Below are positions 5,244 through 64,000 of a DNA stretch of 64,000 bases, one piece after another. The notes beneath the pieces are model-generated. The model had not been told where the DNA came from, did not search any database, and saw nothing but the letters and a program-made list of their open reading frames with translations. Made by a program: the position numbers and the translations under genes. Position 1 is the stretch's first letter. Every line of letters begins with the position of its first letter. Origin of the DNA: Psammoneis japonica. Its lineage: Eukaryota. The DNA lies in assembly GCA_008632985.1 (NCBI GenBank), contig QPGO01000016.1, positions 530,840 through 594,839 on the forward strand. The letters run 5' to 3'.

Positions 5244-5260
5244 AATAAGAATCACAAATT

Positions 5261-12959: not shown

Positions 12960-13700
12960 CCTTCCCCAGCTCTGCAATTGTGTTGTTGAGATCGTCTGCT
13001 GCTGAGAAAGCCCAAAACCTTCCCAGCTGTCCTTCACATGGGTTTGGGGCACTTTTGCACTTCAGCATGTGTGAAGCTGGTGGGTTTCAATGAACCACAG
13101 CTCTTGTGCTTCATTTGTCCACAGCATCCACCCCCCTCTGTCTTGTGCAGCACTTGGCAGTTGCGCTGGCACCCAGAGCTCTGCATCGCTTTTGAGTTTT
13201 CACCACCTTGAAACTTGAAAGTGCCTCATCCGTCCAAAGCACCCAACCCCTCTGTCTCATGCAAAACAACACTCTGGGTGCTGGGCAGCTTCCTTGGCAC
13301 TCCCAACTCTCCTGTCATGCACTTTGCCAGCTCTGCAAGCATTTCTTTCAAGTTTGCTGCTGAGAAAAAGCTCAAAACAAGTGCGCTCGGTTGGTGCACC
13401 CCCCCAACTTTCCTTCACATGGCTGGGGCCGTGTGCAAAGCAGGAGGGTTTCAATGAATCACACTTGCACTTTATTTGTCCAAAAGCACCCCCCCCCCCC
13501 CATCTCATTTGACTCTTGGCAGTTGCCTTCTCCCCCCACTCTCCCACACGACCACAAAGGCAGCTCTGCACATGCATCTGTCAAGCCCGCCAAAAGGTCA
13601 AAAGACGTGCACTCAATTGTTGCACAACCTCCAAACAATGGTCCTTCACATGGTTGGGCCACTTCCTTGCACTGTGAAGCAGGAGGGTCTCAATGAATCA
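12960..13700. repeat. Three degenerate direct repeat units
   Basis: cagctctgca...ccttcacatgg...aagc.gg.gggt.tcaatgaa recurs three times. Confidence 0.75.
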
Positions 13701-13901
13701 ATGGCCCTTGTCACTGTTTCGACTCTCTTGTGTGGCATTGTCGATCGAGCACCTCCTCATCGTTCGAAATGTCAATTTTAGTCCAAGATGTCGAATCAAG
13801 AGTCGCGATCTACTTGACGGAGATTTCGAGAAGACTGACCATGATGACTATCGCAGCCGTCGACAACGCATAGAATGTCGTGTAGATAGCCTCCCAATAT
13901 C

Positions 13902-15495: not shown

Positions 15496-15535
15496 CATCA
15501 ATGACTAGGAGCTTACCAAGCTACCTTGTCTCAAA

Positions 15536-24866: not shown

Positions 24867-24999
24867 TCGTTTTCGCCATTGTCTTGTGTGAAGAATCTCG
24901 CGAGATTCATAGATTCTTCAGAGTGTCAATGTGATTTTGGACTGTTATGTTAAATTTTGATTTGCCGAAATCTCCCTCCGACCGTGCGCCTTACAGACA

Positions 25000-26030
25000 T
25001 CCTTTGTTGGATGTTGATTTGATTGGATGATGATGGGTGGGGCATGATGTTCAATGTTGTCTTCGCATCCAGGCCCTTGCGGCTCCAGCCCACACACCAT
25101 CACATTTCACATTGACCTTTGTGGCTTTGAGCTGAATGTGTTTTGCATTTGAACTGTGGAAAGCAGGGGGGGTGTGCCAGCCGGCACTGGCACAGAAAAA
25201 TTGTGTGTTGTCATTGCAGACTCACTCTTGGGATCTTTGAAGTTTGTTCAGAGTTTGAGGTTGTGGAACAGAGCAGATGCCAGCAGCCAGCTGCAGCTTG
25301 GTTTGTTCTTGTGGGAGTGGCAGAGTTAAAAATGATCGAAGAAAGAGCTTGCAAGAGCCCAAAGATTGTTTGCATTGCCAGGAATGTCTCAGCTTCTAAC
25401 AAGCTCCCTCAACAACAAGGCAGTGGTGACTGTGACAACGACAGTGGGTGCTCTGAAGCCCATTTTCCCAACCCGAGAGGCAACGTGGTTGTTAAACCAA
25501 GTGCAGATTCAAAGAGCCCATTGAGAATGAAGGGGAAGAGCTGAAGGAGGCATCACAGAAGCAGCTGCAGCAGTGGAGGAGCAGAAGGGTGGTGAATGCA
25601 GGTGATGCAGGGCGTTTGGCGAAGAGGGGGGATGAGCAGTGCAAAGAGAGAAAGCCAAATGAAGGGCATGCATGGAGAGATGATGAACAGTTTGGGCCAA
25701 GTGTTTGAATGGCCCATCTGGAGGGAAGGTGGTGTGATGCGTGCTGCTGGGGTGGTCACTGGAGAGACTGTTCCAGGCGAAATCAGCAGAAAGAGGATCG
25801 AGAGGGCAGACGGAGATGCCAAGGTGCAGAGCAGCACCAGAGGCAGGCAGTGCAGGAGGCAGCAGAGTACCAGGTCAGAAGAAGAGGACCAGGGAGGCTT
25901 GGGCTGTGAGCAGGCGGAGGAGAGCGAAGAGCCAAAGAGAAAGCAGTGGCCAAAGAAGCCGTCCCGTTCTGTCACTCCCGCCGTCAGTCGAGCTCTCCTG
26001 CGCCAACTTCAATTTCAGAGCTCGCATCGT
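25000..26030. other. TpA/CpG-depleted degenerate insert of unknown origin
   Basis: Nearly no TA across ~1 kb between two normal genes. Confidence 0.75.
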
Positions 26031-26166
26031 GGAGCCATACAGTGTACAGTAGAGAAAAATCCAAAATCTCGAAAAATCGCAACACCCACAACCAACACGT
26101 TGGGAGCTGTTGTTCTTGCAATCAACATACATTCAGTACACTCCACAACAAGCCTCTTTCTCAATC

Positions 26167-30984: not shown

Positions 30985-33900
30985 GGTAACATGCTCAAGC
31001 AGCACAACAAAAAGTGTTTAGAGCAGCTGCCCTGCTTGCACCGGCAACATTGCCAACAATCATCCACGTGAGATTTGCCAGTCCACAAAATGGTGCCCCA
31101 CTCAGTGGAATGACAAGGCACTGGCTTGCTTCAACAATTTCAAGCATGAAGTCATGCCAAGTTGTTTCTGTGAGGCTGGCTGAGCACTTCAAAACATCAC
31201 GTTTCTGGCAAAACAAAGTGGTGTTGCCATCTTGAAAGAGGGATCAACCACGAGCAAACAACTTGCTTGTCCCAGCTTGCAGAGACAAGTGTTGCTTGCT
31301 TTCCCACACTGTGACATGTTTGCTGGGTTTGACACAAGCAACCCTCAGTGCCACCTTCTGCTGCTGTCACAAGCTTCAGCTTCACATTCACCTGCTCATG
31401 AGCTGCCATCTGGGTTCCCTTGGTGCCACCTTCAGCTGCTGTCATCAGCTTCAGCTTCACGTTCACCTCACAATGAGCTGCCATCTGGGTTGTTGAGATT
31501 TGTGCAGAGCTGCTTCTGGGAGTTGGCGGAGCCAACACAACACTTTCTCTGCGCATGTGGGTGCAGGTGTGTCTGTTTGTTGCTTGGTTGCTGCAAACCA
31601 ACTTGCTCCATTTTTGCTCCAAAAATGCACAAGACTGTGCCATGTTTGCCAGACCATCAATTTTTTCTAGAGATTGTTCACAATGTTGCCCCTCACCATG
31701 TCTGTTGTTGCTCCCTGCTTGACATCAGCATTGAAAGCACATGAGCTGTCATGAAAAATGTCAGGCTCTTTAAACAGCTGGCGCTTCTCACTCATGAGGT
31801 TTTCCAGGTCTTGTTTTTGTGTGCCTGTGCAATGAGCTCACCCACCCAAGTCCTGATCTGCAAGACAAACAGCTTTCCCTTTTCCTGCAAAGAAAAACAC
31901 CTTGGTTTTCACTGCAGAAAAATGAGCTTGTGTCCCCCACATTTTGCAGGAGTGCTTTTTTTTGCTCCTTTGCCCTTCAAGACCTTGTTGCGTGCACTGC
32001 ATGAATCCTTTGTGCTCCCCTGATTGTCAGCATTCAATGTTGAAAGAGTTGGGCTGCTCATCAGCAGCATTGGACCAAACATGGCAAATGCCATGAAGCC
32101 TTTGAAGATGAACAGTCATCTTTTTCAACCGGGTTGCTCTGCTTGTTTCTAGAGTTGACCATGCTGACAATTCCTTTGAGCTTGTGTGTTTGTGCATGTT
32201 TTTTTTTAACATGCAATCTGTCACATCATCATTTTTCTGCTCAGATCCTGAACTCTCAGGACTTTGGGGAAATGGAGCTGTGTCTTCCCAAATGGCCAGC
32301 TTGATTGTGGCAATTGCCTCCAGGCATTGTTCACAGGAGTCTGACCTGCAAAATGGCAGCAAGATCAACAATGCAGTGCATTTTTGAGAATCAACTTTTT
32401 GCCAGCCAGATTTGTTTGACTCATTCCCACATTGGTCATTTTCAAGTGGTTCTCTGTCAAAGAACTGACCACACACGGAGGCTGTGGCATTCCACAAACA
32501 AAGACACTTGTTGCTTGCAATGCCACACTCCTTTCTGGATTGCTGCTGCAAAGGTCTCTCAGGTGGCATCCTTGTTGTTTTCACAATTGCAGCAGCCACC
32601 CTGAAAAACATTTTCTTTGTGCAAAACACTGCCGCCAAGCAACAAATCTCTGGCACAGTGCTTTGGTGGTTGGCAGAAGACACGCTGTTTGTTGTTGTTG
32701 CCATCAAATCAGTGCTGCCAACATGTTTTGACTTGCAGCACACAGCCGCACACTGCACAAGAACACTGAAAGCCAGTTGTCATTTTGGTGCTGTTGTGTC
32801 AGAAAGAGACCCCCAAGTTTGTGCTCATCAGTGCACCCACCAACAAATTCTTTTTGGCAACTTGCAAATTCTGTGATCTGCTTGAGTGACACTGCCAGTT
32901 TTGCATTTTGGCAATGGCCATGTCTTGCAGACAAAAAAGAAGCCCAGCTCATGATGCACTGTTGTTGATTTTGCAGTGTGGCAAATGGCTGACATCAGCC
33001 TGGCATGGGGAAGAAAGTGGTGCCTGCAATGGCTTGGGGAGAACAACTCGGTTTTGGCTTTTGCAGGTGTGCTTTGAGGACTCAGCGCATTGTGCAGCTG
33101 TCTGCTCTGTTTGACTGTGGCACCTCTCTCATGTGGACATTGTGCGCAGCTTTGTTGAGTGGTTAAATTCAAAATAAGAACACGCCAACAAGGTTGCCAA
33201 TCAGAGACAAATGAGCACAAAAAGGAAGAAAGGGCAGACAGAGACATGCACAACAACTCCGCAGGTTGTGGAAAAAACTCTCTTTTGAAAGTGAAAATGA
33301 CAGCACCTGCACGACAGTGCCAAAAAGCATTTGGATTTTTCAAATGGTCAACTTCTAAATGGCCAAAACTCTGCAGTCCCCACTTCCCTCTCCAGCCTTG
33401 CCCCCAACTGGCTCACTCTGCAGCAGAGAGCTCCACACAACAATGAATGTGGTGTTTTGCAGATTTGACAAATCCATGTTCAAAGCAGGTTAAAAGCAAA
33501 TGCCAAATGTGAAACTTTGTTCAGCAAGCCCTTGGAAATTCTTTACAACAGTTTAAAAAATCATGTGGCAGGCTGTCTGTGCCTTGTGGACAAGCCAGCT
33601 CAACTCTAATCTGAGTCACCTGCACTGCAAGGGCACCAAAAAAATCTCTTGGTTGAGCCCCCTGGCTTGAACTCAACCATTTTCACACAGATTGTGACCT
33701 TCAGTTTGAGCTCACCTCACCTTTTGCAAGCAGTGTGTGTTGCACGTGCCACAGCAAAAGAAACAAGCAATTGATTGTCTGTCATTTTCATGCAATGTCT
33801 CATGTGCTGATCTCATGATGCATTTTGCAGCAACAGCACCACTCCTTGTCCTCCTTGTGTCTGCCTTGTCAGCAGCTCAACATGAAGTTGACCCAGCTTG

Positions 33901-34700
33901 AAGGGGGCTCATCAATGAGATGATCAATTTTCTGCACTTTGGTCTGTCCTGCTCTTTGGTTCTGGGCTTGCTTCATGTTGACAGCATGCAATCTTGATCA
34001 AGACAACATTGCCTTGTGTTTGATCCCAACGTGGCAGCTGGCATGTGCAACAAGGCTGCTGACACTGCTTTGAGCAAATGATCAGCAAGCTTTCTGATCC
34101 TCCCCAAGATCTTCCCTGAGTTGGAGTTGACAACACACCCGCTGTTGCCAGCATGTGAGAGCTCAAAGAATGTGGGGATGAAGAGCCTCCAGATGTGACC
34201 CAAGCATGTTCGCTGCTTCCCCTCTCTCAGGTGGTCACTCAAATGCTCATCCTGACTGCAGCCATTGTTGGCGGGTCCATGTGATGTGACACTCACATGT
34301 GTGCAACTGGAGAATGATGTCACTCAAATCGCGGCATTTGTGGCTGCCACAAACAACGTGGAAGGTGGAGCCAAGCATTGTCAGTGCGGTGTGACTGGTT
34401 GCCAAGTGGCTGTCAACATGAGTCCAGTCTCAACCATGCAGTTCTCTTCTTTCCCATGTGCAGAACCAAGTGATGCTGAGTGGGGCGTTCTTTGCTGATC
34501 TCCAATCCATGTCAGCAGGGTGCCTTTTGATGTCACGGGCTTGAGCCAAAGAAGTTGCCAAAGGCTGGCTGGTGCGATGGGCTGAAACAAGATCCAATCA
34601 GTTGACGGGCAGCTTCTTGCTTTGCCTCAATGCAGGGGGGGAATCACCGAATCAAGGACTTGCCCTCGAACTTGGCGCCAAGAATGATTCAGTTAAAGCA
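30985..34700. other. TpA/CpG-depleted degenerate block (probable decayed TE or gene remnants)
   Basis: Very few TA or CG; ~70-bp internal direct repeat at ~31348-31490; ORFs are Tyr-free and Cys/His-rich. Confidence 0.75.
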
Positions 34701-46690: not shown

Positions 46691-48811
46691 TTCTTGTAGG
46701 TTTTTGCCTGTTGCTGGAGCGGTGGGGTTTTCCTAGCTAGCTCTACTACAGTACTGATAGAGTTAGAGCAGGAGCAGCTATGAGACCCAGGCCTTAAGTA
46801 ACTTCAAACTGGCATGGCAGGCGCGCTCCGGATGATCGTACAGACCACCACCGCGGTGACAACACGGAGAACTTGTCAAAAAACCGCCGGAGCCGACGAT
46901 GACATTGACGCGGTAGATAAGGTGTCTAAACAATCGTCGTTTTTAGTCCCATTACTACAGCAGGTTTATTACACTATCTTTCGTTTGGGGTTGTAAAGGG
47001 ACCATCAGAGAACGGCAGAGAGTCGAGTTTTATGCAAACATGCCGTTGCACCCGTTCGTGACGCCATGTTGCATGCAGACGACGCATCAACTCACCATTT
47101 GCCGGATATTCGGCACCCACTGAGTTAAAGTCCGAGTTTTTAAAAAGGCAAGTAAATTGAAAATCAAAATGGTGCTATCAATGTATCCAAGGCTCACCAC
47201 TTGTTGTCTCACTCAACTTTCTTGCGGATGCAGCCAATTCTTGTTGTCTTTCCTAGCATGAGCACATCGACGAATATAACGTCGTCGTCACATCGTCAAA
47301 CCCATTTGACTAATGGTATTGACTAGACGATTATTTTTGAAGACTTTGATAAAGCAACTGTAATGCATTCAGCCAAGTATTCTTGAATGGGAGAGAGTCG
47401 GGCGGATGAGAGTGAAAATGAAGAATGAAGTTGGCGTACGGTTCAAGAAAAAAAGCAGTCAAACATGGTTGACAAAATATTCTGATGCTGTTCTTCTATA
47501 GAATGATAAATAATAGTGAATAGAGCTCCTTCCTGGCTTGTATGTACTCTAGATTGATCGCAAAGACACAAATGTCAAATCTGAAAATAGAAAAGTGTGG
47601 CTTGTGAATGAGTATTTGTGGATTGCTTCACCCATTTATAGCATGAAAGAGGTCAGATATAGTTGTCACGAGGTCAAAGACAAATTAGAAAGTAGAACAT
47701 TGCCATAAAATCGGTTTGTGATGATGTTATCATCTAATCTCGGTGTCGAGAACGGGTCAATTTCACTTCATCGTACAGCGAGTCACGTGTCTTGAATCCC
47801 GTATGACCCACTCGACTCGAATTTTTTGGAAGTTTTAGCTAGACTTTGACCCCTGCTAGAGCAACAAAATACACAAGATATGAGCATTATCGGTCTCATC
47901 CTCATTAAACCGATGTCTTGCGAGAATGTAATAGGTATGTATTGTTCATGGTATCTGGTATTTCAAAATAGAACCAACTTTTCGTGGAGCACCTTTATTA
48001 CACGGGCAAGTACGAGGGACGATTTTCAGTGATTGGTTAGTAACTAACGTTCACCCCCATTCTAGGCCACCAAAAGGGTCATGAACTTCGTATCTGTATA
48101 TTGTTAGTCGATCGAGGTGGGTATTTGGTTAAGAACGGGGGGTTAATTTTTACACGTGGCATCATGGAGCTGGGACGGAAAGCAGCACATCAACACAAAG
48201 CAAACATCACACAACATGGCACATGAAACATGAAGCATGCATCCACATGCACGGAGCATGCGCATGCCGCGCGGCATGGCGAAATAGCGGTTCCGTCTTG
48301 CTGTCGTCGGGACCTTTGGAAACCACTTCGGCACTTCGTGAGCCGCAAAACATCGCAAAAATCCTCACCCGGCACGACGACAGTGCCGCCGACGCGCCTT
48401 CTTTCAGCTCTGCAATCGCAGCACTAACGGTTCTAAACTTCAACGGTTTCAACACAATTTTGGGCTTGTGTGAAGTGGAGCAGACGTTTTGCTGAACACT
48501 CTTGCTTGTGTGTGTGCAGTCGAATGATTGGGGCGGCGCATGTGCAAGCAGCACGCCAAACATGGTCCCAACGTGCAACACAACTGACTCTGGTCAGACA
48601 AATGATGCCAATTGACCCCAAGGCTGGCAATTTCAAATGTGGCAAAGGCCCCCCTTGCTGTGTCACACCACTGCCGCTGTCGGCTGCAACCCACGAGCTG
48701 GCGTGCACAATGTTGGGTGTTTTTGGAAGACACGCGCCATTTTGGTGTCAGAGCAGAGTGAGTGCTGATGAGAAAAAGCTTGAGAAAAAATGTTGGAGAA
48801 AGTTCCAGCAG

Positions 48812-49071
48812 GCCTGTTCCAGCTCCAGGTGATCCGCTTTTCATCACGCGAGAGGCCGATTTTTTCTGCGCAGTTTGGCACAATTAACTCCTTCAATTTT
48901 GATCGTTTCGAAAATCGAAAGGTGAGTGTACACCCAAAAACACATGTAAAGTGCACACTTGCCCTTCGATTTGGCAAAAAACGGATTTGGAAAAAGTCAA
49001 TTGCGCCAAATGCACAAATTGCCAAATGATGGGAATCGAACCCTCGCGGAGCACCTGGAGCTGGAACAGGC
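48812..49071. mobile_element. ~260-bp foldback MITE
   Basis: TIR gcctgttccagctccaggtg(a/c)tccgc at both ends; internal inverted arms; CAG flanks both sides. Confidence 0.88.
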
Positions 49072-50156
49072 CAGCAGCAATGAGAGAAGGACACATGTGA
49101 GCAACAAGAAATCATCATGTTGTTGAGTCAGAAGCAAGCTGTCCATGTGACACAAGCAGCGCCCCTGGGTTTCCTCTGTGCCAAAGCCGAGAAGCTTTTT
49201 TCACCACAACGTTGTTTTGCCATGCCCCAGTGCTGCTGCCGAACAACCAAACACTGCTTCTGGCAACAAAGCATTCCAAGAGAGCACACCCAACAACTGT
49301 GCTGGCAGCACTCAAGATGTGTCTGCACTCACTGGATCAAGCCGCAGCTTGCGCCAAGCAGCTCTTGCTGCAGCAGAGTGGGCAACATTTCAGTGCTGCC
49401 AGTTTGTTCAAAATCTCTCAGCAGCTTTTCCAGCATTTTTGCAGCCCTGCAGGAGTTGTGGACCAAATGAGACACAGCCCTTGATGCCCTGGTTGCAGTG
49501 AGTTGCTGCCACTTCATTTCAGCCTGCAGCTTGGCACACTTTGCACTTCGGTGTCTCCCATTGTGGAGAGCATGAGTTCAGAGAAGCCTTTCAGGGTGCA
49601 TGTGGTCCTGCCAAGTGTCTTGCAGACAAGGTCAAGTCACACACCAGAAGAGTTGACAAGGGTGGGGTGAAGGTCAACATGGGCTGAAGACATCTGTGCT
49701 GTGCTCTTCCTTTGGTCAAAACTGGCACAATGTTCACATCAGCACACCAGCGGTTTGAGGCAATGCAATCTTTCATTGACAAGCAGAGTTGTTGGAAAAT
49801 GCAGCAGATGGGAAATGCAGGTGACCTGGGTGCATTGAAGAGAAGATGTTGTTGCTGGGGTTTTCCATCACAAGGAAGTGGTCAGCCCCAGATGAGGAAG
49901 AAGACGAGGAAAAACTTTTGTGCTGAGATCCTGTGCAGATCCCATGCAGATTGTGACATCAGCTGTTGCTGTGCACACTGCTTTTTGGTGCAAGACTGTG
50001 CAATGATGGACAATGCAGGCAGCCAGAGAAACCTCAAGGAGCATTGACAAGTGCATCTGTTGAATAACTTTCTCCCAACTTGAGCTTGTTGTGGACTTGG
50101 TGAGACAGAACATGTTGGAAGAGACCACCATGGAAGCTCATCCATTTGTGCTCAAG

Positions 50157-50498
50157 AACATGGTCCCCAATGGTGTCCACCTTGCTTGTTGAATGCAACT
50201 GCAATGCAGCATTTGACAATGTGGTGATCAAAGTGTTTTGGCAGCTGTGGGCTTGGCTGCCTGCAACCAGACAAGTCAACCACTGGGTGAAAGTGCCATG
50301 TTGGTTGCAACTTGCAGCACATCACGACAATTGATTTTTCCTCATCTGGCAACATGGTTCCCAGTGGTGTTCACCTTGCTCATCCAATGCAGTGTTTGAA
50401 GTGTTTTGGCAGCTGTGGGCTCTGGATGAGTCTGCTGCCAGATGAAAGGACAATGTCAAAACAAACGGCAAAGTGAATCATGACAATTGATTTTTCCT
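50157..50498. repeat. Diverged direct repeat upstream of copia element
   Basis: aacatggt.ccca.tggtgt.caccttgct...aagtgttttggcagctgtgggct...gacaattgatttttcct occurs twice. Confidence 0.8.
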
Positions 50499-50570
50499 GG
50501 CTGGTTTCCTTGTCTTTCTCATCTGAGGAATTCAGGGTCAAACAAGGTGTTCCCTGTGACAGAAAATCCC

Positions 50571-53500
50571 AGTTGTTGCTCCTGATGTTGAAAATTTGGC
50601 AACTCTTTGCCATTGAGATTTGTCACCAATCTCTCTCTCTTTTGCTTGTGAACTCTCATCTCACTTTTTGGAGTGAGTCATTTGGTTCACACAATTTCAT
50701 CCCTGGTGTCAGCAGGTGCCTGTTTGAGTTGTGAGTTTGAAATTTGTTTCAGAACTTCTGGGCAATCCACAGTCACTGCAGCAACCAAGACAGTTGCAGC
50801 AAGCAGAGCAGAAGACCTCACCTGATTCCCTTTCAGCAACATTGACTTGCTGGTTCAACACTCACTCCATGGAGTTGCTGGCGCTGCATTTGGTGCTTGA
50901 AAATGCTGTCACACTTGCAGTCAATTGAACCCTGAAGACCTGCACAAATGAGTGGCAGAGGGGAAGTGGCAGATTGAACAACCAAGGCCAAGGATGTGGT
51001 CACAGTGGAAGAAATGACAAGAGCCACAGGTCATCAAACCCAAAAAAGACCAATGACAAGAAGCACTTTCAGCCTGAGATGAAGTTTTGTCCATCACAGA
51101 ACAGCAACACTCTCAATGCTGCACACAAAGATTTTAAGGAGAAGATCACCTGTCACATGCAAAAGGAGTGCACTTGAGGTGCGCATCTGGCAAGATCCAC
51201 AGAGGATGAGAAATGCAAGGACTTTGGCTCCAAGAGACCCACTTTGGGTGCAGCTGCAATGACTGTTCTGGGCAAGGACAGTGCAGATTGTCAGGCCAAC
51301 CTGGAGAAGAGATGTCAAGAAAAGAGGCAACTGGAGTGCCAGTGCAAAGCAGAGCTGTGTGAACATGACAAAAAAGTGAGAGAGTTTGAAGAAAACAAGA
51401 CAACCCATGTGCCAAGATCATGGACAATTGCTGCACAAAGGATGAAACAGAGAGTGCAGGGGACCCCAACTGTGCAAATGTGGGAATGACCCAATCAAGC
51501 TGCTGAAGCTGACACAAGCACTTGCACTTGACTCAATGAGAAGCTGATGCCCATTCCACACACTTGCCACGTTGCTGCAGAATGTGCTGGATGTGAGACA
51601 ACAAGACAGTGAGCTGCTGAATGGCTGCCTGTCAAGATTCAAAATCAGCAAGACACTGCTGTCAAAGGACTGGGAGACAGAATGGCTTGATGGCTTCATC
51701 GCCAATGCTAAAAAACACAAGGATGCCAGTCCAGTGGACAAAGACATTCTGTGAGACAGTGTGAGAGAGAAATGGACAACCTTTGTGTGTTGGCAGAGAA
51801 CAGCAATGACTGCTGCTGCAAGAGCTTGGAGAAGAGCTTTGTCAGACACTGCAGCCTGGGCAAGGACATGCATGCAAAGACCCTCAACATGGCAATGGAT
51901 GTGCTGCTCAACCATCCAAAAGATGACACTCCTTACAAACAACACAGCCAGAGGAGTGACAACCATGCGAACAACAAGAGTGACAGCAAGAATGAGATGA
52001 CAATCCCAATGCTTCAAAAGACCAGAGTCATGCCCAGAAGGGCAGTCAGGGTGAGATTGTGACATGCCGCTGTTGTGGTGAGCTGAATCACAAGTCCCCA
52101 GATTGCAAGCACAAAGATAAAATGGCATTTAAAGATTGGTTCAGGAGTGCCAGAAAGAAGCCAGATGCCAAGGGACAGAGCCACACACAAAGACAAGATG
52201 ACTCATTGATGTGGACAGTGACACAGAAGCACTGACACCACCAGATTCAACTGATCAACCCATTCTGGCCAAAGAAGAAGCACTGGCATGGCATGGATTG
52301 CAGCTGGCAAATGAAGGACCAGAGACAAGCATGAGCCAAGTCAATGTGAAGACATTGATGCGGATGATGTCATCCTTGACAATGGCTTCACCCTCAATGC
52401 TTTGGCAAGCCAGAGACTTGTGCACAATGCACAGCTGGAAAAGACCAAGATTGACCTGTCTGCAAGTGCAAGAGTGGACATTTTAGATGAAAACTGCAAC
52501 ATGCCCAGTGGGGGGATGTGAAGCTGGGATTGCAAAGTGTGATGGTGAACATCCACAGTTTGAAGAGTGCCAATGGCAAATGCTGCACAACTTGTGACAG
52601 CTGAGTGGTGGATGAGTTCTGTCTGCTGAAAAGAAGACTGGCAAACAGGTCACAGTGTCAAAAGTGAATGATGTTGGACTGCATGCCTTCATGCCCAGCC
52701 AGAAGTTCTTAAATCATGCAACAGTCCTCAAGAGAGAGAGAGAGAGCTGCATGTGAGCATGCTGTCAAAGATGACCAAGATGGAGAAGAACAATGGCAAG
52801 AATGCAGGAGTGGATCTGGGAGCTGTGGCTCCAGTGGTGGAGCAGAACTTCATGGGCTGCACCAAGAGGGACACACCGAGCACCAAGAAAGCACTCAGAC
52901 TGTGCCACGAGGCTGGAACACCCAATGTCAGGGATTTCAAGCCATTTTTACATTTGAATCAGGTGAAGAACTTGTCCATCATTCCTGAAGCCATTGACAG
53001 GATGGAGTTCATCTGGGGCCCACCAACAGATGCACCAAAGGGCAAGACCAAGCATGCGCGCCATTCTCATGAGAGGAGCAACATTGTTGCCACGCCACCT
53101 GAGACACATGAGAAGCAGAGAGAAGATGTGATCCTCTGCATTGATGCCATGGAAGCATGTGGTGTTGAGCTGCTGCATTTGCTGACAAGATGGTCAAGTG
53201 CCAATTGAGTGTGAGACTGAGGTCCAAGAAGCACGCCAATTGTTTGCAATGCTCTGGACATGTTTCTGTGATGGCACAACATGGCTCTGTTCAAGATTGA
53301 CTTTGTTGAGTGAGATCCCAAGTTCAAGGCAAATGCCAGCAGATGTGGCAGATGGCATGAATCTGGAGCCCATCAAAGAGTGAACTCAAGCCACTGTGCA
53401 CCACATGCTGTGCACAATGATGCCCAAGTTCATGTGCAAGCAAGCCATCATCAAGAACACTGTCAGGTTGAGCATGCACCCACAAAGGAAGGAATTTCTG

Positions 53501-56190
53501 AAACTTGCAGTCTGCACACTGCTGTGCAACAAAGAAACCCACACTGCGACAAACACTTCAAATTCATGTTTGGGGGATTTGCACTTTCCCACATTGAGAA
53601 CAAGCTGATGAACATGATGGAGACATGTGGCATTGACAGCATCTGCTTGTGACCACATTTTGATTCATCCAAGGGCAGACACTGTGCCACGAACCTGCAC
53701 AAAAGGAAACTTTTGAACCCCTGCCACTGCAACGCTGCACCCTTGGCCAAAATGCATTCATTCTAGCTGTTGAGAAAATGGCTGTGTCACAAGGCATCAA
53801 GGAACTCAATTTCACAGGCAAATGTGGAAACAATCTCCAGCACAATGCTGATTGGACTGCAGGAGTGGGCAACAACAAAAATGAAAGCAACAGCAACAAA
53901 AGTGACAGCAAAGATGATTGCAATGACCAAGTCAGAAAACAAAGACTGTGAAGACAACCCTGACACAGATGATGAGTGTGACAAGCCAAATAAGATCCCA
54001 GCCAATGAGATGCCCAGTCCCAATCACCATCATGAGAACCAAGAAGTTGAAGATGAAGACTGTGAACATCAGGATGAAGAGGAAATGCCCAAAGATGAGG
54101 ACAAAAATGATCCACTGGAAGATGGCATGGACTCCCAACCAGATGACAGGTTGGAAGGGGAAAGATTGGTGGAAGAGGCAAGCACCTCTGCTGGAAGAAA
54201 AACCAGAGGTGGGGCATGACATCCTTTGACATTGCAACATGCAAGCACAGAGAAAAGAAAGTTTGATTTGTGGGAGTGGCAGACACTGACAAAACAGAAT
54301 GAGAATGAGTCAAACTCAAGTGCTTCCATCATTTAAGAACAAACATGAGCCCCAATCCAGGGGATGATGCTGCGCATGAAATGGAGACAGCTGTGGCACT
54401 GGCACAGTTCATGTGCAAGATTGGCAACAAACTCTGATCAGGAAAGGACACCTGCTTTGCCCAACAGCATTTGCTGCATGAAGCCTCAAAGTGTTTGGCC
54501 AGAGAAGGCATGATGCCTCAGAGAAGGAGATTGGGCAACAACTCCATGACAGAGTCTTCTTTGCACCAACATGACAGAATGTTTTTTTTTCACTAACATC
54601 AGCCAAAGATGCAACTCTGGCTGAGCAGACCAAGGCTTTGATTGCCTTGGTGTTCCCAATTGAGAAGCAAGATGGATGCATGAAGTGACGAATGGATTGC
54701 AGTGAGAAACCCACCAGAAAATGGCTGGACAAAGATGAGTCAGCCAGCCCAACAGTGTCACTGGAAGGTGCGCCAATGATGGCTGTTGTTGATGCCATGG
54801 AAGGGTGTGACACATTGAGTGTCAATGCACCGAATGCACCATTTTCAGTGACTTTGACTCTGGAGCCCAAGGGAGGTGAAGACCAGATCATGATGAAGAT
54901 TGCAGGAGTGTTGGTCAACATGCCAGTGAGCATCAATCCCAACCTGCAAAGACCACACATGGTCATGGAAAAGGGAAGAGAGTCCTCTGAGTCCAAGTCA
55001 TCACAGAGCCATCTGCAACAAGTTGGTCATGGGTTTGAGCTCACCCATGCAATCTGTGCATTGCCACTTGGATGATCAATGGCAAGCAGCCCACAATGTG
55101 CTTTCATGTGGATGATCTGTTGTTGAGCCACAAGAGCCCAAAAGCAAAATGACAAATTCCAAACCTGGCTGAACAACAAGATGCATGGAAGCCATGGTGA
55201 AGTCATCACAATGCAAGGGAAGAGATGTGACTGTCTCAGCATGACTCTGGACTTTAGCGTCAAAGACAAGGTGAAGTTCGACATGACCAACTGTGTTCAC
55301 AAGATGGTCAGTCAGTTTCTGGAAAAGATCAAGAGTGTGGATGCTGCCATGATGCCAGCAGGAGAGAATGTGTTCAACCACCAGCAGCACTGGATTGCCA
55401 GTCAAGAAAGCAAAAACATCCCACACACAGGTTGCCAAGGAGCTGTTTCCATCCAAGAGAAGCTGCTCAGATGTTCACCCAACTTTCACAGTGCTGTGTG
55501 CACAAGTCAGGGAGCCTGCCAACAAGGGCTGGGGGAAGCTGGTCCATTGCATTGTTTGAACCAGACACAAACTGAAGTCACCACACTGAGTGCAAAAAGA
55601 CCTCCAAGTTGTTGAGTGGTGTGTGGATGCATTGTTTGCAGTGCATCCAGATTTCAAGAGCCACACAGGAGGAGTTGTGACCATGGGTGACAGAGCAGTG
55701 CAGACCATGTCAAAATGCCAGGAGCTCAACACCTGAAGCAGTGCAGAAGCCAAGCTGGCAGGAGTCAACACTGCAATGACTGTGACAATGTGGACTGAGT
55801 TGTTCATGGAACACCAAGGTCATCCAATTGAAAATGCTGTTGGGAAAGTGCAACGCTGTTGGGAACCAATGGGTGCTGGAGTGCTGGCAAGCAATCCAGA
55901 GCACTCAACATTTGGCGCTTCTTTGTTGCTAACCAGGTTGAGAAGGGCAATCTCAAGATGCAGCATTGTCTGACTGATGACATGTTTGGGGATGCCATGA
56001 CAAAGCCATTGCAGGGTGAGAAGTTTTGAAAGTTCAAATGAGCCATTGTGGGCTGATTGCTTCAAGCATGGCAGGTGTGATGCCCTGCAACCTGGAAAAA
56101 GTGGCAGGCTGTTCAGTTCAACCAACCACAATCTGTTTTGTTGACAGCAGCCATGATGTTGATGTTGGTGGTCATGGACCATGTGGGGTG
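50571..56190 (+). mobile_element. Degenerate Ty1/copia (CoDi-like) LTR retrotransposon, near full length
   Basis: gag (NDPIKLL, SLGKDMHAKTL), CCHC knuckle CRCCGELNHKSPDC ~52065, protease ILDNG ~52370, integrase, RT (EKEIGQLHDR, EKQDG), RNaseH VDALFAVHPDFKSHTGG and TKPLQG, in copia order. Confidence 0.9.
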
Positions 56191-56841
56191 ATGAAACCCT
56201 TGTGCTGTGTGATGCAATGACATGGCAGTGGCCAGAACAACGCTGGGACAAGCTCAAGTGGTTGGCTGCATCATCAGAGCCAAGAAAAGAATTGGCCAAA
56301 AAAAGAGGAGAATTCCAAGTGCAAGACTGTTGCTGTGCACTGGAAGAACATGAAGAGCAGAGGAAGAGTGGGTGTGGCTCACTGCCACAGGACCCACTCA
56401 ACCATTGAGAAGTGATTGATGTGGGTCCATTGATGATTGAGTTTTTTGAGGATGAGACAAGCCCATCTGGACCATCCTTCATGGATTGTTGGAGAAGAAC
56501 AAAAAGGAATTTGAGGAAACATTGCACAAGCTGTGGAAGGCAAGGTTCCACACCATGTGACATGTGCACGCCACAAAGCAAGAGTGGGCCAATGAAGCAC
56601 ACCAGCACATGTCCACGACTGCACTGATGATCTCCCTGTTTGATGACAAAGGTGAGACAAGGCTCACATTGAGGCAGCTGATGCACTGGGCAGTTGTGTT
56701 GTTGAAATGCCACAAGGAGATGTGGAGTCCATGCACTGTGATGAAGTTGGGCTGAGAAACCAATGTGAAGATTGGGAGTGTGTTGGAACACACAGCAGAT
56801 GGGAGGTGCAAGGAACCCAGATGCATTGAAGAGGAGATGAT

Positions 56842-58850
56842 GTTGTTCCTGATGTGGAAGATTTGGTGGCTCATTTTGTTCAAGATCTCATTGTCGCTGA
56901 TCTCCCCTGCTTGTGAATTGTTCATCTCACTCTTTGGAGTGTGTCTTTTGGTTGACACCATTTTGTTGTTTGTGTCAGATGGTGTGTCCATTGCATCACA
57001 ATTGAGAGAAGTTTGATTGAGAACTTCCAGGCAAACTGCAGCTGGGTGCTGCAGCAGCCAAGGCAAGTGCAACGAGTGGCACAGGAGACCTTGTGGGATT
57101 CCCTTTTTGTGACATTGACTTGCTGGTTGAACAATTGACACATGTGGCATTGACAGCATTTGCCTGTGACCCCCCATTTTGATTCACCCAAGGGCAGGCA
57201 CTGCATCACAAACCTGCACACAGGAAAACTTTTGAGCCCCTGCCACTGTGCCACTGCACCCTGCTTGAAAGACACACACATCTGAGCTGTCAAGAAGAAG
57301 ACCACATCACAAGGCATCAAGGAACCCAAGGTCATGGGCAAAACATGGAGACAATCTCCAAGATGCTGATTAGACTGCAGGAGTGGACACCAATGAAAAC
57401 AAAGACAGCACCAACAACAAAAGCCACAGCAAAAATGAAGACTGTGAAGACAAACCTGACTCAGATGATGAGTGGGAAGAGGCAACTGAGATCCCAGCCA
57501 ACAAAAAAAAACAGCCCCAATCAACAACACTGGAGCCAAGAATTCAGAGAAGAAAACTGCATGCATCATGAACAAGATGAAGTGCCTGAATGTGGGGATG
57601 ACAGTGATGCACCTGAAAAGATGACAAGGACTCCCCAGCCAGACAACGGGTTTTGAAAAGAGAAACTGGTGGACAAGGCAAATGCCCCAGCTGGCAGAAG
57701 GACCAGAAGCAGCACAAACTTTGGTGCATCCTTTGACATTGCCACACACAAACACAGAGAAAAAATCACAATTTGCAGGAGTGGCGGACGCCAATGAAGA
57801 GGGATGAGAACAGATCAAACTCAAGTGCTGCCACCATTTAAGAACAAACATGAGTCCCAACCCAGGGGACGACATTGAATGCAATGCAGAAACAGCTGTG
57901 GCAATGGCACAATTCATGTGCAAGATCAGCAACCAACTCTGATCAGGAAATGGCACCTGTTTTGCCAAGCAGCATTTGCTGCATGAAGGCCCCAATGTGT
58001 TTCACCAGAAGTGGCTTGATGCCTCTGAAAAGGAGATTGGACAACTCCAAAACAGAGTGTGCTTTGCACCAATGCAAGTTGAAGATGTGACTCCAACTGA
58101 GAGGATCAAGGCTGTGGTTGCCTTGATGTTCCCAATGGAGAAGCAAGATGGTCACATGAAGGGGCAAGTGGATTGCAATGGAAAACCAACTGGAGAAATG
58201 GCTGGACAAGGATGAATCAGCCCAGCCCTTCAGCGTCACAAGAAGGAACACCAAAGACAGCTGTCATCAATGCAATGGATTGGTGCAATGCAATGAGTGC
58301 CAGATGCACCAAGCACATTCATGCAGACATTGACTCTGGAGCCTGAGAGGAAGGTGAAGACCAGATCATGCGCAGTGACTGTGATGCTCCTGTGGACCAA
58401 GCTGTTCATGGAACACCAAGGCCATCTGATTGACAAGAACACCCCACATCCGCGCAACAGGAGCACCACACTGTTGGAGAAGCTGTGATGGATGCAGGAG
58501 TGCAGACAAGCAATCCCTGAGCACTCAACACTTGGCACTTCTTTTTGTTGCTGACCAGGTCAAGAAGGGCAATCTCAAAGTGCAGCATTGTCTGACCAAT
58601 GGCATGTTTGGGGACTTTGTGTCCAAGCTGTTGCAGGGCAAGAACTTTCAAAAAATCAAACAAGCCATTGTGGGCTGTCAGTTTCAAGCATGGCAGGCAT
58701 GGCACCTGTTTGTGATGTCATGTGAGAGTGTTCTGATGTGTGTGGGTAAAGGAACCCTGCAACCCTGAAGACATGATGACATGGGCTGCATGGCTCAACC
58801 AACCACAATCTGTTCTTTTGACAGCAACCATGGTGCCAGTGACAGCAAAT
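56842..58850 (+). mobile_element. Internally deleted second copia copy
   Basis: 56842-57133 resembles 50571-50860; 57138-58360 resembles 53622-54900; 58365-58850 resembles 55777-56190. Confidence 0.85.
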
Positions 58851-59900
58851 GGCTGGCTGGGCAGAGCCAGAGCAAGGGCACACCAATGAAAGCCTTGAGC
58901 CACGTCAACCCATGCAGGAGTGAGTTCTCAAGCACTTGGAGCATGACAAGCTGCAAATGTCATGAGACCATTTTGCATGGAACACACATGGCCATGACAG
59001 TTGGACATGCAGAGCTTGAGTTTTTTCACAACATTGTGGCCACACTTGGCATTGTGCAGATCCTGTGCAGACCCTTCACACAAAGTGAGTCGCTTGCGCG
59101 ATGATGGCCAGTTGTGCAGCTCGGTCATGTCAAGCTCCCACAGCCTGTTGCAAGTCTCGCACTGGGAGCGGCTTTTTCCAACATGTGCTTCTACATGATC
59201 AGCTGTCGCGGAGGTGGGCACCAGCCTGCAGATGCGCGCTGCACTCGCACTCCCATGACAAGGTCAGTGGAGTGACAAGAGGAACCCAGCGTGCTTCTTC
59301 TCCGACACGACAAACTCCATTGTCACCAAACTTGAAGTGCTGTGTCTGGCACATCTGGAATTCATCCGGAGTCCCCAGATGTTGTTTCAGGTCCTGATGA
59401 AGAACTCCTGTCATCACATGTGTCTTTGTTTCACCAGAGTTTGTCTTCTCATGTGACGCTCTTCTTGTCAGAGTTTTTGATTTCTTCATTCTTTGTTCAA
59501 GCTTTTTGAGTTTGTCTGCTGCCTGCAGCCAGCTGGCGCTGTTGCTGCAGAGTTTTCTGGTTCTGCTTTCTGTTGCTTCAATGCTGCCCCTTTCTTTGGC
59601 AGGCAACAGACAAATTTCTGCTCTCACAGCCGGCCTCTCTAGCCTGTCTCTTTAAAAGGGCCTGCATCAAATAAAAAATTGACGCCATTGATGTCATTTT
59701 TGTTCTTCGGTGTTCCGAGTGAAGATCTGCGCTGCACCTTGCTGTTCGGGGGTGACAACACCTTGTGACAACATTTCATCGATGAATCATTGATGAACGA
59801 TTTGAGATTGCAGTCAAGGAACAGTCTTTGCAGGAACCGAGTCACATGCAAACTTTGACGCTGCGTGTGAATGATCAGCTCTCCATTTGCTCATGTGTGA

Positions 59901-62900
59901 ATGCTCTGCTCAAAGATCCAGAACTCAAAGATGCAAAACGATGTGAGGAAACTGGACTTCCACGTGCCTCTCTTTGGGCAAGACTCGGAACTCGCCCTCC
60001 TCAGAAATGCCTTGGAGGATGCCGCTTCCGGCGTCACACTGGTGAGGATCCATGGTGATTCAGGAACAGGCAAGTTGAAGTTGATTGAAACATTTCAGAA
60101 TCTTGCAAAGGAAACATGTGTGTTTGGGATTGGCAAGTTTGAGGAACAGGTCGATGAGCCGTTTTCAGCCATGGCGGATGCGCTCAATGATGTTTGCAGT
60201 CAGGTCCAAGATTTAGGCACGTTCCCACCCCGATAATTTCGGCCGTAAAATAAACACAATTTCGTTCTACACAAAATTCCTGTAGAAACTCTCGTACAAG
60301 AAAAATCGCACGTCTGTTTTCCATCCTTCAATTTACAGCCGTAATTATCAGCAATTTACGACGACAGGTGTCGGTCGTCGTAAATTCTCTCCCGTAAATA
60401 TATATAATTTTCACGGTAAATTCGGCGTTTTGGGAGCTCGAACGTGCCACGTCACAACCTCTCCCATTTTATTTCTCTGCTCCGATCGATCCGCACAACA
60501 ACCATGATGGCTGCTGCCATGAACGGACCCGTTCATACACGAACGACCGTCCAGTCTACGAAGGTAACAATATAGAGACAGGTTAATAAGACTACGCTTG
60601 ATACGATCAACTTGTCAGAATCTTGAGTTTTCGTTGTTGTTGTGGCTTATGACGTCCGTGTCGACTCATGGTAGTTTTGATGTCTTCGTTTCTCTTTTTC
60701 AGATTTCGCGTTGGTATTCTTCACAAACCATGCGTCTACAGACTTGACGCTGAATCTTCGCAGCAATATATGATCTGATGTTACATTGAGGTGGTTCTTG
60801 GGTGTATACTCAAGGTTGTTATACTTGATTGACGGTCAAGAGTCAAGAACACAAGAATTTTGGTCACGTCGACAACAGCAAGGCTTTTGCTCCGTTGTGA
60901 TAGAATGTGACTATGAAGAAGACTGTGTGCACTTATTTCATTAACCTTATCGTAAGTTGGGACAATTATGTTGGTGGGGGTCAATATTTTGCACAACATC
61001 GTCTGCAATGTGCCTCACAGTGCCTTGCTCTATTTTCTGCTCTCTTCTCTGCGACTTGCTCTGTGTTTTTTTGCTCTTTGAAATGGATTTAAGCCATTGG
61101 TAAACTGCAAGAGATAAGAATAGTGCCTTTTAGCACCTTATACGCTGTAGAAATTTCATTTAGTAGTTTACATGCTGTAGTCTTACTGCATGCCATTGTT
61201 TCGTGGGTCTTTCTGCTCTCTCTGCAACTCTTGCTAGTGGATTGGATATTGGATGTATTTCTTCCGACCTTCACTGGTATTATCATGAGTCTTACTCTAC
61301 TAGAGTAGAGAGGGTAGCAGTGCACGGTCAACAGTGCTCTAGCTGTAGCGCGTGTAGCGTCTCCTCACCGAGCTCGACATGAGATTTTGATGTTTTTTAC
61401 CGATCGAATTCGTTCCCAGCCTGACGCCCGTAAATACGTAAATTTGGCCAAATTATATTTATTTTACGGCCGAAATTATCAGGGTGGGAACGTGCCTTAG
61501 AAAAGACACAAAATGAGTTGCCAGCCAGAGTGTTGGGGAGCATTGTTCCCATGCTGCGGAACAACTGAGACTCCAGCAGCACTCATCTCTTGAGGAGGAA
61601 GGCAACAAACTTTGATCGATTAAAACTGGCGGCTCGTGATCTGATCAGAATTCTTTGTGAGGAACAGCGGGTCATTCTGTTTCTGGATGATTTGCAGTGG
61701 GCGAGACCTGACTCCTTGGAGCTCACAAAGACACTTGTGTCAGACAAGGTGGCCAATCAGCTCCTCTTTGTTGGTTCGCACCGTGAAGTTTCAGTCGAGC
61801 ACAATCTCAACACTCTTTTTGAGAGCAACAAGGATGTTGTCGAAATCCAATTGGCAAGTCTTGACGTTGTGACTGTTAAAAAATTGGTTGCTGCATTGCT
61901 GAAAAAGGAGCCTGATGAAGTTCATGCGCTTGCCACCGTGGTTCATTGCAAGACAGGAGGAAATGCAATCTTTGTGATCCAGTTTCTTCGTTGTCTTGAG
62001 CAGAAAAGATTTCTCGCATGCTCCCTGAAAACGTGTGGGTGGGAATGGGATTTGGATGGGATGCAGTCCCATGCAAACATCACTTCAGACAAAGTTGTTG
62101 ACATGATCATCGACAAGATTCAAACCACCTCTGCAAGTGCTCAACTTGTGTTGACCATTGCTGCGTGCTCTGGCCTGGCAAGGTTTGACATTGACACGTT
62201 GTTTTCAATGACACAAGCAATCGCCGACGTCCACAAGGAGGAAGCCATTGAAAGCATGGGGAGACTCCATTCTGTTTTGGAGACTGCCGCTCAAGATGGA
62301 CTTCTTGAGGAACTCACACCTGGTGAGTTTAAGTTCGCCCACGACCGGGTGCCAGAAAGTGCAACTTCTCTTCTTCCCAGCGGCCAAAAGAAAGTTTTGC
62401 TTCACTGCAAGATTGGGCAACGGCTGCAAAACATGAGTTTGATGGCCAATGACAACAGCCATGTTGGCAAGACCCGGCTCCTCCTGCTTGGTGTTTGCCA
62501 GCTGAATCTTGCCAAAGACCTTGCAGTGGATGTAGAGGAAAGAGAAGAGGTTGCACGCCTCAATCTTCAAGCTGCTGAAGTTGCCATTCACAAATCCGCC
62601 TTTTTCCCAGCAGTTGAATTTTTGGAAGCAGCTGCAGCTCAGCCAGGAGGGCAAAATGACAGGGATCCTTGGGAGCTGCACTGCAATTTAATGATCAAGC
62701 TGTGTGCTTCTCTTGCCAAGATGAAGCTGTGCTGTGGGAAACTGGACGAATCTCGTCCCATTGCCGACACCGTCTTGCAACGGGCACAAAGTTTGAAGGA
62801 CAAAGTGGGCGCTTGCAGTGTGTCAATTAATGGCCTTGTCCAGCAAGAGAGAATCGAGGATGCCACAGACCTTGACTTGTTGGCAATGGACCAGCTTGGC

Positions 62901-64000
62901 CTCCATCTTCCTCAACGAAACTTGCATTTTCATGTTGCTGTCAACCTGATGAAAACAAGAAGGCTTGCAAAGGGCAAGTCAGATGCGGAATTGCTTGTGG
63001 ATGATGAGAGGTTGCAAACAGCGGCGCCTTTCCATTCAGAGGTGGGGGGGATGTGCTTTCCATCTGGCAACAGCCAGTTGTTGGCAACTGCATTCTTGCC
63101 GGGGCACAACAGACATTGTTGCATGGGCCAAATGATGGCTCATGTGTTGCATGTGCCGTGTGTGGGTTCATCCTGGGAAAGACTGGTGACATAAAAGGGG
63201 CCTTTCGGTTCAGCCAATTGTCGCTGCATCTTGCTGAGAGTGCAGAGCTAGTTCCGCAAAAGCCTCGCGCTGTTGCTTTAGCTCACTGTGCATCTCAGCA
63301 CTGGTTTCGGCCGCACCATGAGAGCCTCAACCCCTTTTTCATGCACGTGAACTGACTTTGGAAATCGGAGACATCCATCATTTGTGGTTTTGCATTTTTC
63401 CTTGCTGCATCGCCATGTCTGTTGTGGTCTCCATCTGTCTCTGCTGCAGAGTGACATGAAGAAATTGCAGGAGTCCTTGACGACTGTTCCCCAAGCTTTC
63501 ATGTTGCATTGGCGCAGCCCCTCTGGCAAATGGCATTGAATCTAATGGGAAAATCCCGCAATCCATTGGTTCTCAGTGGAGAAGCTGTGGAAGAAGGTCC
63601 ATGCATTGAGGAGTGGACCAAGTGCAAGAACGAGTGGCCTTTGAACTCACTGTGGCTGTCTGAGATGTTCCTTGCTTGTTGTTTCAATGATTTGACCCTC
63701 GCCAACAAAATGGCTTCAAATCCAGTCCTCCATCTGAGGAAGTCCCCTCTGCCATTCTCCCTGTCAGAGTGTCATTTGAAGGACTCATTTCCCTTGGTCT
63801 GGCCAAGTCAACTGGCAAAAGATTGCACAGGAAAAAAGGGAAACGGAGAACAAAGCAAATGACGAATTGGGTGAAGAGCGGGGCCGTAAATTGTCGCCAC
63901 ATGCCACTCTTTCTGAGAGCTGAATGGAAGGTGCTCGATACAAGGAGATCCAAAAGAAGTGCAGGATTGTGTGACAACGCCATTGTGACAGCTGCAAAAC
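59901..64000 (+). pseudogene. STAND/AAA_16 ATPase (multi-sensor kinase/MalT-like), interrupted by a MITE; runs off window
   Basis: Walker A GDSGTGK, GKFE, Walker B LFLDDLQW, KTGGN, FKFAHDRV; in-frame stop ~61567; frameshifts after ~63000. Confidence 0.9.
60216..61496. mobile_element. 1281-bp non-autonomous PIF/Harbinger-like element
   Basis: 39-bp TIR ggcacgttcccacc(c/t)gataatttcggccgtaaaataaa with one mismatch; TTA target duplication at 60213-60215 and 61497-61499; removing it restores QVQDL|EKTQNEL. Confidence 0.93.

Follow-up and report, generated by a model that had tools for sequence, protein, structure and literature searches.

We analysed a 64-kb stretch of the genome of the diatom Psammoneis japonica (contig QPGO01000016.1, positions 530,840 to 594,839 of the forward strand; all 64,000 nucleotides are called the window, numbered from its first letter), in which several kilobase-scale domains have almost lost the dinucleotide TpA. 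The core of the largest domain consists of a Ty1/copia retrotransposon relic (about 50.6-57.1 kb) and, behind it, a second copy that is truncated (57.1-58.8 kb). Further to the right lies a pseudogene of the AAA_16 family, which is split by a miniature inverted-repeat transposable element (MITE) of normal TA content, and three smaller domains are intergenic (Table 1). The losses of TA are matched by gains of TG and CA, and it is this conversion that we characterize here.

Table 1. Features of the window discussed in the text (o/e, observed/expected ratio; LTR, long terminal repeat; TIR, terminal inverted repeat).
Feature	Position	Strand	Basis and remarks
Main TpA-poor domain	48152..60214		TA gaps; left edge approximate
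Left edge of main domain, CpG retained	48434-49350		TA o/e 0.07, CG o/e 0.57
Core of main domain, also CpG-poor	49351-59089		TA o/e 0.03, CG o/e 0.08
Right edge of main domain, CpG retained	59090-60214		TA o/e 0.06, CG o/e 0.58
Right-end TpA-poor domain	61498-64000		TA o/e 0.08, CG o/e 0.44
TpA/CpG-poor intergenic domain	10042..13779		9 TA vs 150 expected; tandem and inverted repeats
TpA/CpG-poor intergenic domain	24992..26038		5 TA vs 42 expected
TpA/CpG-poor intergenic domain	31019..34694		12 TA vs 147 expected
Ty1/copia polyprotein relic (integrase-reverse transcriptase-RNase H region)	52837..56053	+	tblastn; frameshifted, no Tyr codons
Putative 5' LTR of copia relic	50574..50860	+	repeat pair; TG...CA ends
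Putative 3' LTR	56841..57133	+	repeat pair; purine-rich tract before it
Second copia copy, truncated, internally deleted	57128..58848	+	homologous to 53609-54905, 55772-56085 and 56104-56171
AAA_16 (STAND-type ATPase) pseudogene, N-terminal part, TpA-poor	59901..60233	+	Pfam profile positions 1-83
Rest of AAA_16 pseudogene	61569..63999	+	profile 114-166 at 61569-63191; tblastn matches to window end
MITE, 1,283 bp, TA-normal, non-autonomous, high-copy, splits the AAA_16 pseudogene	60215..61497		48-bp TIRs

The o/e ratios of TA and CG were tabulated per kb across the window. Results showed that TA o/e lies at 0.00-0.15 in 10-14, 25-26, 31-35, 49-60 and 62-64 kb and at 0.3-0.8 elsewhere, with CG o/e of 0.06-0.53 in the TpA-poor kilobases vs about 0.7-1.2 outside them and TG and CA raised up to 1.5-2.4. 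Setting the limits by TA-free gaps (150-1441 bp) gave five domains that occupy 22.7 of the 64 kb, or 35% of the window. The pooled counts, in which the main domain was started at 48434 and not at 48152, comprise 65 TA in 22,740 bp where about 912 would be expected, a density of 2.9/kb compared with 40.1/kb over the 41,250 bp outside the domains (binomial P 5e-302), and 306 CG, 13.5/kb vs 54.8/kb outside (P 5e-233). The G+C content is unaltered (0.48-0.53 in the domains vs about 0.47), and the domain edges are sharp: within 500 bp on the outer side of a border there are 12-36 TA (8 for the 31-34.7 kb domain at its right end), compared with 0-3 within 500 bp on the inner side. A preliminary description of this DNA had reported TA to be nearly absent from these domains, with roughly 20 TA in 49.1-59.6 kb and a left edge at 48143; the exact count is 19, the last dense TAs stand at 48144 and 48151, and its outline of the domains is borne out.

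The ORFs (open reading frames) of the copia relic themselves had no Pfam match, and a word-based homolog search with ORF 52672-53205 found no match. An exhaustive HMMER search with ORF 55127-55612 as query revealed 138 homologs (best E 1e-19), and RVT_2 was present in 11 of the 12 that were scanned. By tblastn, residues 124-1168 of the intact homolog P0296 align to 52837-56038 on the + strand, in several frames. These results support the link to transposons that the preliminary description had made, as a Ty1/copia relic makes up the core of the main domain. A zf-CCHC match at 51996-52232 was weak (E 0.085) and was not used. The two putative LTRs, about 290 bp each and both with TG...CA ends, are 69% identical (87% in purine/pyrimidine space) and differ over 285 bp by 52 transitions, 36 transversions and 10 CA<->TG doublets; no target duplication was found at the pair, the flanking 5-mers being different. 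That they are partners of one insertion is probable but not proven, and they may not be.

We looked at the balance between dinucleotides lost and gained. Compared with the rest of the window, the domains have lost 41.4 CG and 37.2 TA per kb and have gained 36.2 TG and 37.2 CA per kb, so that a TA+CG loss of 78.6/kb faces a TpG+CpA gain of 73.4/kb, and the shifts of all other dinucleotides stay within 19/kb. The copia element contains 775 TG vs 765 CA, and when the relic is compared with its tblastn-aligned homologs the replacement of tyrosine by histidine is about as common as its replacement by cysteine. As TG equals CA and Tyr to His equals Tyr to Cys, approximately, both strands were equally hit. 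No same-strand, kataegis-like runs of TG or CA were found in the main domain (z = +0.75, 2,705 sites). This random order of TG and CA means that sites were converted singly, not in long single-strand sweeps, and outcomes that are equal and unclustered place the change at the DNA level. The change is therefore a strand-symmetric A:T to G:C transition restricted to TpA, with both TpG and CpA as outcomes.

The strand symmetry bears directly on whether the changes were made in RNA. The core element is a retrotransposon, and ADAR-type enzymes prefer a U on the 5' side, according to the Discussion of a recent preprint on the chlorarachniophyte Bigelowiella natans (B. natans; Mettrop et al., bioRxiv 10.64898/2026.01.13.699255), and one may think of ADAR-like A-to-I editing of retrotransposon transcripts, fixed by reverse transcription with each insertion. 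Such editing predicts TA to TG on the sense strand alone, against the near parity of TG and CA and of Tyr to His and Tyr to Cys, and both the changes in the AAA_16 pseudogene and the LTR-to-LTR differences arose after integration. We consider this explanation barely credible.

The coding read-out of the relic is consistent with the dinucleotide counts. Among the 45 aligned Tyr positions of P0296, none is Tyr in the relic, 10 are His and 6 are Cys, with 16 of 29 Phe and 6 of 8 Trp kept; in 40 intact control loci Tyr was kept at 39-68% (median 55%) and His+Cys made up at most 15%. Retention relative to control, drawn from eight overlapping queries with redundant counts, was reduced for five amino acids (Tyr 0.0, Arg 0.40, Ile 0.43, Val 0.61, Leu 0.64), compared to 0.97 for Phe, 0.97 for Trp and 1.02 for Lys, and Arg in the relic was replaced by Gln, Cys, His or stop. 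This pattern of retention is the one predicted for transitions limited to TA and CG. The AAA_16 frame 61569-63191 (541 aa) is likewise devoid of Tyr, which makes up 2.7% of residues on average in 20 homologs, and the 8 columns with Tyr in at least half of the AAA_16 homologs read His 2, Cys 2, Phe 2, Thr 1 and Leu 1.

The retention of lysine also addresses one of the causes that the preliminary description had put forward, namely error-prone repair of the pol-eta type linked to methylated DNA. In the form considered here, patch repair would be triggered by T:G mismatches from deamination of 5-methylcytosine (5mC). The losses of TpA and CpG do coincide in the domain cores, as such repair would have it. 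Pol eta acts on the WA motif and mutates AA as well as TA. In the domains, AA is not depleted (83.6 vs 78.1/kb), lysine stands at the level of the control, and the loss of TpA is complete where that of CpG is partial. Pol eta is thus disfavoured, and we hold it to be quite improbable.

We also compared the two copia copies, as sequences that share an ancestor record what happened after they separated. The segments 53609-54905 and 57128-58384 are 73-77% identical, about 89-90% in purine/pyrimidine space, and their alignment of about 1,219 bp contains 200 transitions and 85 transversions. Among adjacent double transitions, 44 are CA<->TG, and the next commonest type occurs 9 times. A CA<->TG doublet implies an ancestral TA or CG that was resolved independently in each copy; 44 doublets thus correspond to roughly 88 sites converted since the copies diverged, not far from the total of about 116 TA+CG that flank frequencies predict for this length. 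The conversion therefore dates from after insertion or duplication. Together with the mass balance, the parity of TG and CA, and the change of Tyr to His or Cys with Lys, Phe and Trp kept, these doublets support, indirectly but from several sides, the direction (TA to TG/CA), the strand symmetry and the TpA restriction proposed in the preliminary description.

The doublets also speak to the idea that the elements have a native composition, in other words that they came from a setting that avoids TA and CG (for instance to evade a nuclease or an RNA sensor) and were never hypermutated locally. This would agree with domains that are sharply bounded inserts, three of them without identifiable ancestry. 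However, TG<->CA doublets between copies and between LTRs mean that TA and CG were present after duplication, conserved Tyr turned into His or Cys and Arg into Gln, Cys or His within broken frames, the AAA_16 relic, which is of cellular type, is affected too, and none of the 80 best-matching relatives is TpA-poor. Native composition is accordingly given next to no weight.

These relatives were found by a metagenome scan with an alignment of intact copia homologs, from which the best 80 of 444 confirmed loci were taken; being the best matches to intact proteins, they under-sample mutated copies. Their TA o/e ranges over 0.45-1.09 (median 0.63) with 0 of 80 below 0.3, and none of the 980 1-kb windows in them has a TA o/e below 0.2. 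The preliminary description had named equally TpA-poor intact copies as an observation that would refute its reading, and the relatives do not show this; the result shows only that the normal state of the copia family is TA-normal. Among the 138 homologs of the copia relic, 12 representatives (P0259, P0261, P0262, P0265, P0271, P0275, P0282, P0289, P0301, P0312, P0349 and P0373; 84-376 aa) are free of Tyr, and their Cys+His content is 8.9% vs 5.0% in the 111 homologs with at least 2% Tyr. The 10 Tyr-free homologs that were looked up are singletons (with one pair) from ENA, Logan and JGI metagenome contigs. This hints, without amounting to proof, that these homologs may carry the same footprint in other samples.

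As the preliminary description spoke of a repeat-associated process, a "reverse RIP" (RIP, repeat-induced point mutation), we examined copy number, for which the depth of k-mer contigs is a rough measure. The AAA_16 relic has a k-mer depth of 63-90, with single-copy flanks at 50-58, and a TA o/e of 0.06-0.08, whereas the MITE within it reaches 1,000-1,600 and is TA-normal. The stretch at 46.7-48.0 kb is also TA-normal, at a depth of 4,200-5,300. A single- or low-copy relic hit next to an untouched high-copy MITE means that the target is the domain and not the copy number. The hypermutation is independent of copy number, and the repeat-associated framing is not supported.

The borders of the MITE are informative. 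The TA-normal island at 60.2-61.5 kb is exactly the MITE plus its TTA target duplication, found on both flanks (60212-60214 and 61498-61500), with flanking TAs at 60214 and 61498. Its TIRs are identical at 45 of 48 positions, all 3 mismatches being transitions, and a single frame translated across it contains 19 stop codons. A 3-bp TWA target duplication is typical of the PIF/Harbinger superfamily. By its TIRs, TTA target duplication and stop-riddled frame, the MITE fits an element of the PIF/Harbinger type. The simplest order of events is that the tract was mutated first and the MITE then inserted at one of its few remaining TTA.

We also asked whether the bases are real, using reads from one study (three runs, one sample, possibly the assembly's own source). 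Long-read basecallers make errors at modified sites, and modified bases in repeat chromatin might be misread so that cellular TA and CG are written as TG and CA; no library type is recorded for these runs, and the single sample adds to this concern. Results showed that k-mer contigs of run X1 equal 56024-58147 (2,124 bp) with 0 differences at depth 37, and 58392-58810 and 59428-59933 are also exact at depth about 30, where single-copy flanks have 50-58; run X2 covers 10 of 30 bins and run X3 none, and neither was weighted. Exact unitigs of 2 kb at such depth would not be obtained from noisy long reads, which makes an artefact unlikely. In addition, 59428-59933 is represented by two X1 contigs of similar depth, 30.7 (exact) and 28.5 (49 differences, 46 gap positions), which seem to be haplotypes about 10% apart in the hypermutated tract, with flanks that collapse to one contig. 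Strand-mixed miscalls should leave TA and CG in the consensus, and both are nearly absent; the TA-normal MITE inside the tract has boundaries exact to the base; and Tyr-free copia relics are found in unrelated ENA, Logan and JGI metagenome contigs. A base-calling artefact is, in our judgement, very improbable.

The TpA loss has to be distinguished from the CpG loss that accompanies it. At the edges of the main domain and in the pseudogene the loss of TpA is complete (TA o/e 0.06-0.08) where that of CpG is partial (CG o/e 0.44-0.58), and the TpA-poor domain extends beyond the CpG-poor core. One system of dual specificity might remove both, such as a deaminase that attacks the A of TpA as well as the C of CpG: TA and CG losses are similar in size, their borders are shared within about 1 kb, and the B. 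natans preprint cites ADAT2 enzymes for which both A and C in DNA are substrates (bioRxiv 10.64898/2026.01.13.699255). Against it stand the narrower CpG-poor core, the 230 of 231 de novo changes at A:T that the same preprint gives for B. natans, and copia relatives from the metagenome that are CpG-poor and TA-normal (L040 and L068, CG o/e 0.21 and 0.12, TA o/e 0.59 and 0.76). We regard a single dual system as unlikely. Judging from these compositions, CpG loss is probably the ordinary decay of methylated cytosine in silent domains, a second and separable process.

The few TAs that survive are not a random sample. TTAA accounts for 21 of the 65 residual TAs vs 73 of 1,653 in normal DNA, and TAT/ATA contexts are almost gone. 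When the sites are grouped by symmetric class, their survival agrees with the product of one factor per strand, set by the nucleotide on the 3' side of the adenine (A 0.54, G 0.24, C/T 0.065), and back-mutation from TG/CA does not describe the residual contexts (chi-square 90.6, P 8e-13). The mutator may therefore prefer TAY over TAG over TAA, favouring a pyrimidine 3' of the adenine, which we offer as a lead and not as a result.

Pfam scans were run on stop-to-stop ORFs of the depleted domains, in sets of 18, 131 and 106, and AAA_16 alone passed, the other matches being weak (E 0.002-0.1) and ignored; no recognisable protein domain was found in this way in 10042..13779 or 31019..34694. The loss of TAA and TAG in the depleted domains gives long stop-to-stop frames in all six frames; at 55.8-58.0 kb, for instance, two on the minus strand reach 355 and 359 aa. 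The scans of the window for tRNA and Rfam families gave no match, and a candidate tRNA-derived short interspersed element at about 49.03 kb was dropped as both were empty.

Other observations concern the surroundings of the domains. Two direct copies of a repeat of about 310 bp (9794-10100 and 15189-15498), with 79% identity, or 88% in purine/pyrimidine space, stand on either side of a segment that holds the first depleted domain and a TA-normal gene for an EamA-type transporter (13890-15104). The same domain contains tandem repeats at 10568-11037, 12087-12192 and 12578-12758, with inverted copies 1.5-2 kb downstream, and the long open frames over these tandem repeats (10568-12758) are repeat artefacts. 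To the left of the main domain, 46669-48002 is AT-rich (G+C about 0.40) and TA-normal, of very high k-mer depth; inspection of 46.4-48.5 kb for repeats and ORFs found no ORF, TIR, LTR or domain, and the segment is probably an abundant unclassified repeat. The highest k-mer depth seen, about 15,000, belongs to 48670-49336, which is TpA-poor with CpG kept (o/e 0.57) and includes an imperfect palindrome at 48873-49011. The neighbouring genes 39649-41499 and 42918-45299 encode Cys-rich proteins that combine Pro/Thr/Ser linkers with repeated "GACC" modules, and internal tandem duplications are found in the Cys-rich genes (41155-41325/41326-41496; 44935-45743/45740-46467). A CYP51 frame in the window has its best named matches in Trieres (74%) and in Seminavis and Nitzschia (62%), which supports the diatom origin of the DNA.

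Taken together, we think it likely that silenced, dead DNA was hit in situ, after its arrival, at nearly every TpA by a targeted mutator, the loss of CpG being separate. The tracts lie in the nuclear genome of the diatom and would be made up of at least one copia relic, its truncated second copy, the adjoining AAA_16 pseudogene and three intergenic inserts of unidentified content. After arrival at the locus, nearly every TpA would have undergone an A:T to G:C transition, each resolved at random to TpG or CpA, and most CpG would have been lost too, by C to T or G to A. The agent would be a locally targeted mutator acting on DNA, most plausibly through deamination of adenine after T (A to I, read as G), and it might be aimed by chromatin or by a "foreign DNA" mark and not by sequence homology.

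Several points weigh against this reading. Both the mutator enzyme and its targeting are something we infer from composition. For three of the five domains no content was identified, and their mobile or foreign origin is assumed. The LTR pair shows its 36 transversions and lacks a matching target duplication. The outcome of TG vs CA by flank (r = 0.32, P = 0.22) gives no second backing for the 3'-neighbour model. The independence of the read evidence is that of a separate k-mer assembly and not of a separate sample. Finally, the main text of the B. natans preprint never names CpG, and the joint loss of TA and CG here might mean another or an additional system.

The literature searches found no diatom report of TpA depletion or hypermutation, and on the subject in general only the B. 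natans preprint was relevant; neither "CpG" nor diatoms occur in its main text (0 occurrences each). In the part of PMC2806351, on diatom copia elements, that was consulted, dinucleotide bias or hypermutation is not mentioned. The novelty is lower than the preliminary description had assumed, because the preprint shows the same TpA-only hypermutation experimentally in B. natans. In its account of mutation-accumulation lines, 231 of 302 nuclear mutations fell in two integrated viral regions, and 230 of these 231 were A to G or T to C, all at TpA according to its text, at a de novo rate about 1000-fold above background that was active in some lines only. It further reports 124 TpA-poor, CpA+TpG-rich clusters in the genome, enriched in reverse transcriptase and DDE domains, and its authors propose deamination of A with ADAT2 as candidate (bioRxiv 10.64898/2026.01.13.699255).

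TpA-specific hypermutation of unwanted DNA had thus been documented in one species and in one preprint. The diatom footprint carries the phenomenon across a supergroup boundary within SAR (Stramenopila, Alveolata and Rhizaria) and extends its targets beyond viral inserts to retrotransposons and a neighbouring gene relic. A bolder proposal, which we put forward tentatively and would not expect to hold on present grounds, is that diatoms share the chlorarachniophyte TpA mutator as an old, SAR-wide, chromatin-aimed defence that edits adenine beside CpG methylation, takes TAY first and TTAA last, and is common in nature. If true, a SAR-wide defence would erase both self-complementary pyrimidine-purine steps from silenced DNA until tyrosine can no longer be encoded. 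Diatoms are a lineage with tractable genetic models, in which deaminase candidates shared with B. natans could be knocked out, and TA o/e, Tyr-free reading frames and TG<->CA doublets offer read-outs for mining genomes and metagenomes. Annotation is concerned as well, since the loss of TAA and TAG leads gene callers to long spurious ORFs and real protein homology is hidden from profile searches.

Comparison with known systems places the process more precisely. Like fungal RIP, it inactivates mobile DNA in place by dense transitions and leaves a dinucleotide footprint; RIP, however, changes C to T mainly at CpA, creates TpA and lowers G+C, whereas here TpA is destroyed and G+C is unaltered, and RIP needs duplicated sequence, whereas here high-copy elements escape and a single- or low-copy pseudogene is hit. 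The decay of 5mC shares the core CpG o/e of 0.08, the matching gain of TpG/CpA and the change of Arg (CGN) to Gln, Cys, His or stop, but cannot account for the loss of TpA. The ADAR and APOBEC systems of animals are alike as deaminase-type hypermutation against mobile or viral nucleic acids, and in the 5'-U preference of ADAR, but they act on RNA or single-stranded cDNA with strand bias; the changes in the window are strand-symmetric, post-integration and also present in a relic that is not a retroelement.

The closest system is the one described in B. natans. In what the preprint reports, A:T to G:C changes are confined to TpA with both TpG and CpA outcomes, they fall in kilobase-scale domains of non-host or silent DNA, they do not depend on copy number (its region derived from a nucleocytoplasmic large DNA virus, NCLDV, is single-copy), and the long-term footprint is TpA-poor and CpA+TpG-rich, as in our window. 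The differences are that B. natans is a chlorarachniophyte (Rhizaria) and our host a diatom (Stramenopila); that its NCLDV region has a Rho of 0.45, where the window is near saturation (TA o/e 0.03); that its targets are viral inserts, ours, as far as identified, a copia element and a cellular-type pseudogene, with no viral hallmark found; that CpG is co-depleted and surviving TA flank-biased here; and that the de novo rate was measured there, while the window offers the footprint in sequence. In conclusion, the process is of the same kind as the TpA hypermutation of B. natans, here at saturation on retrotransposon and pseudogene targets.

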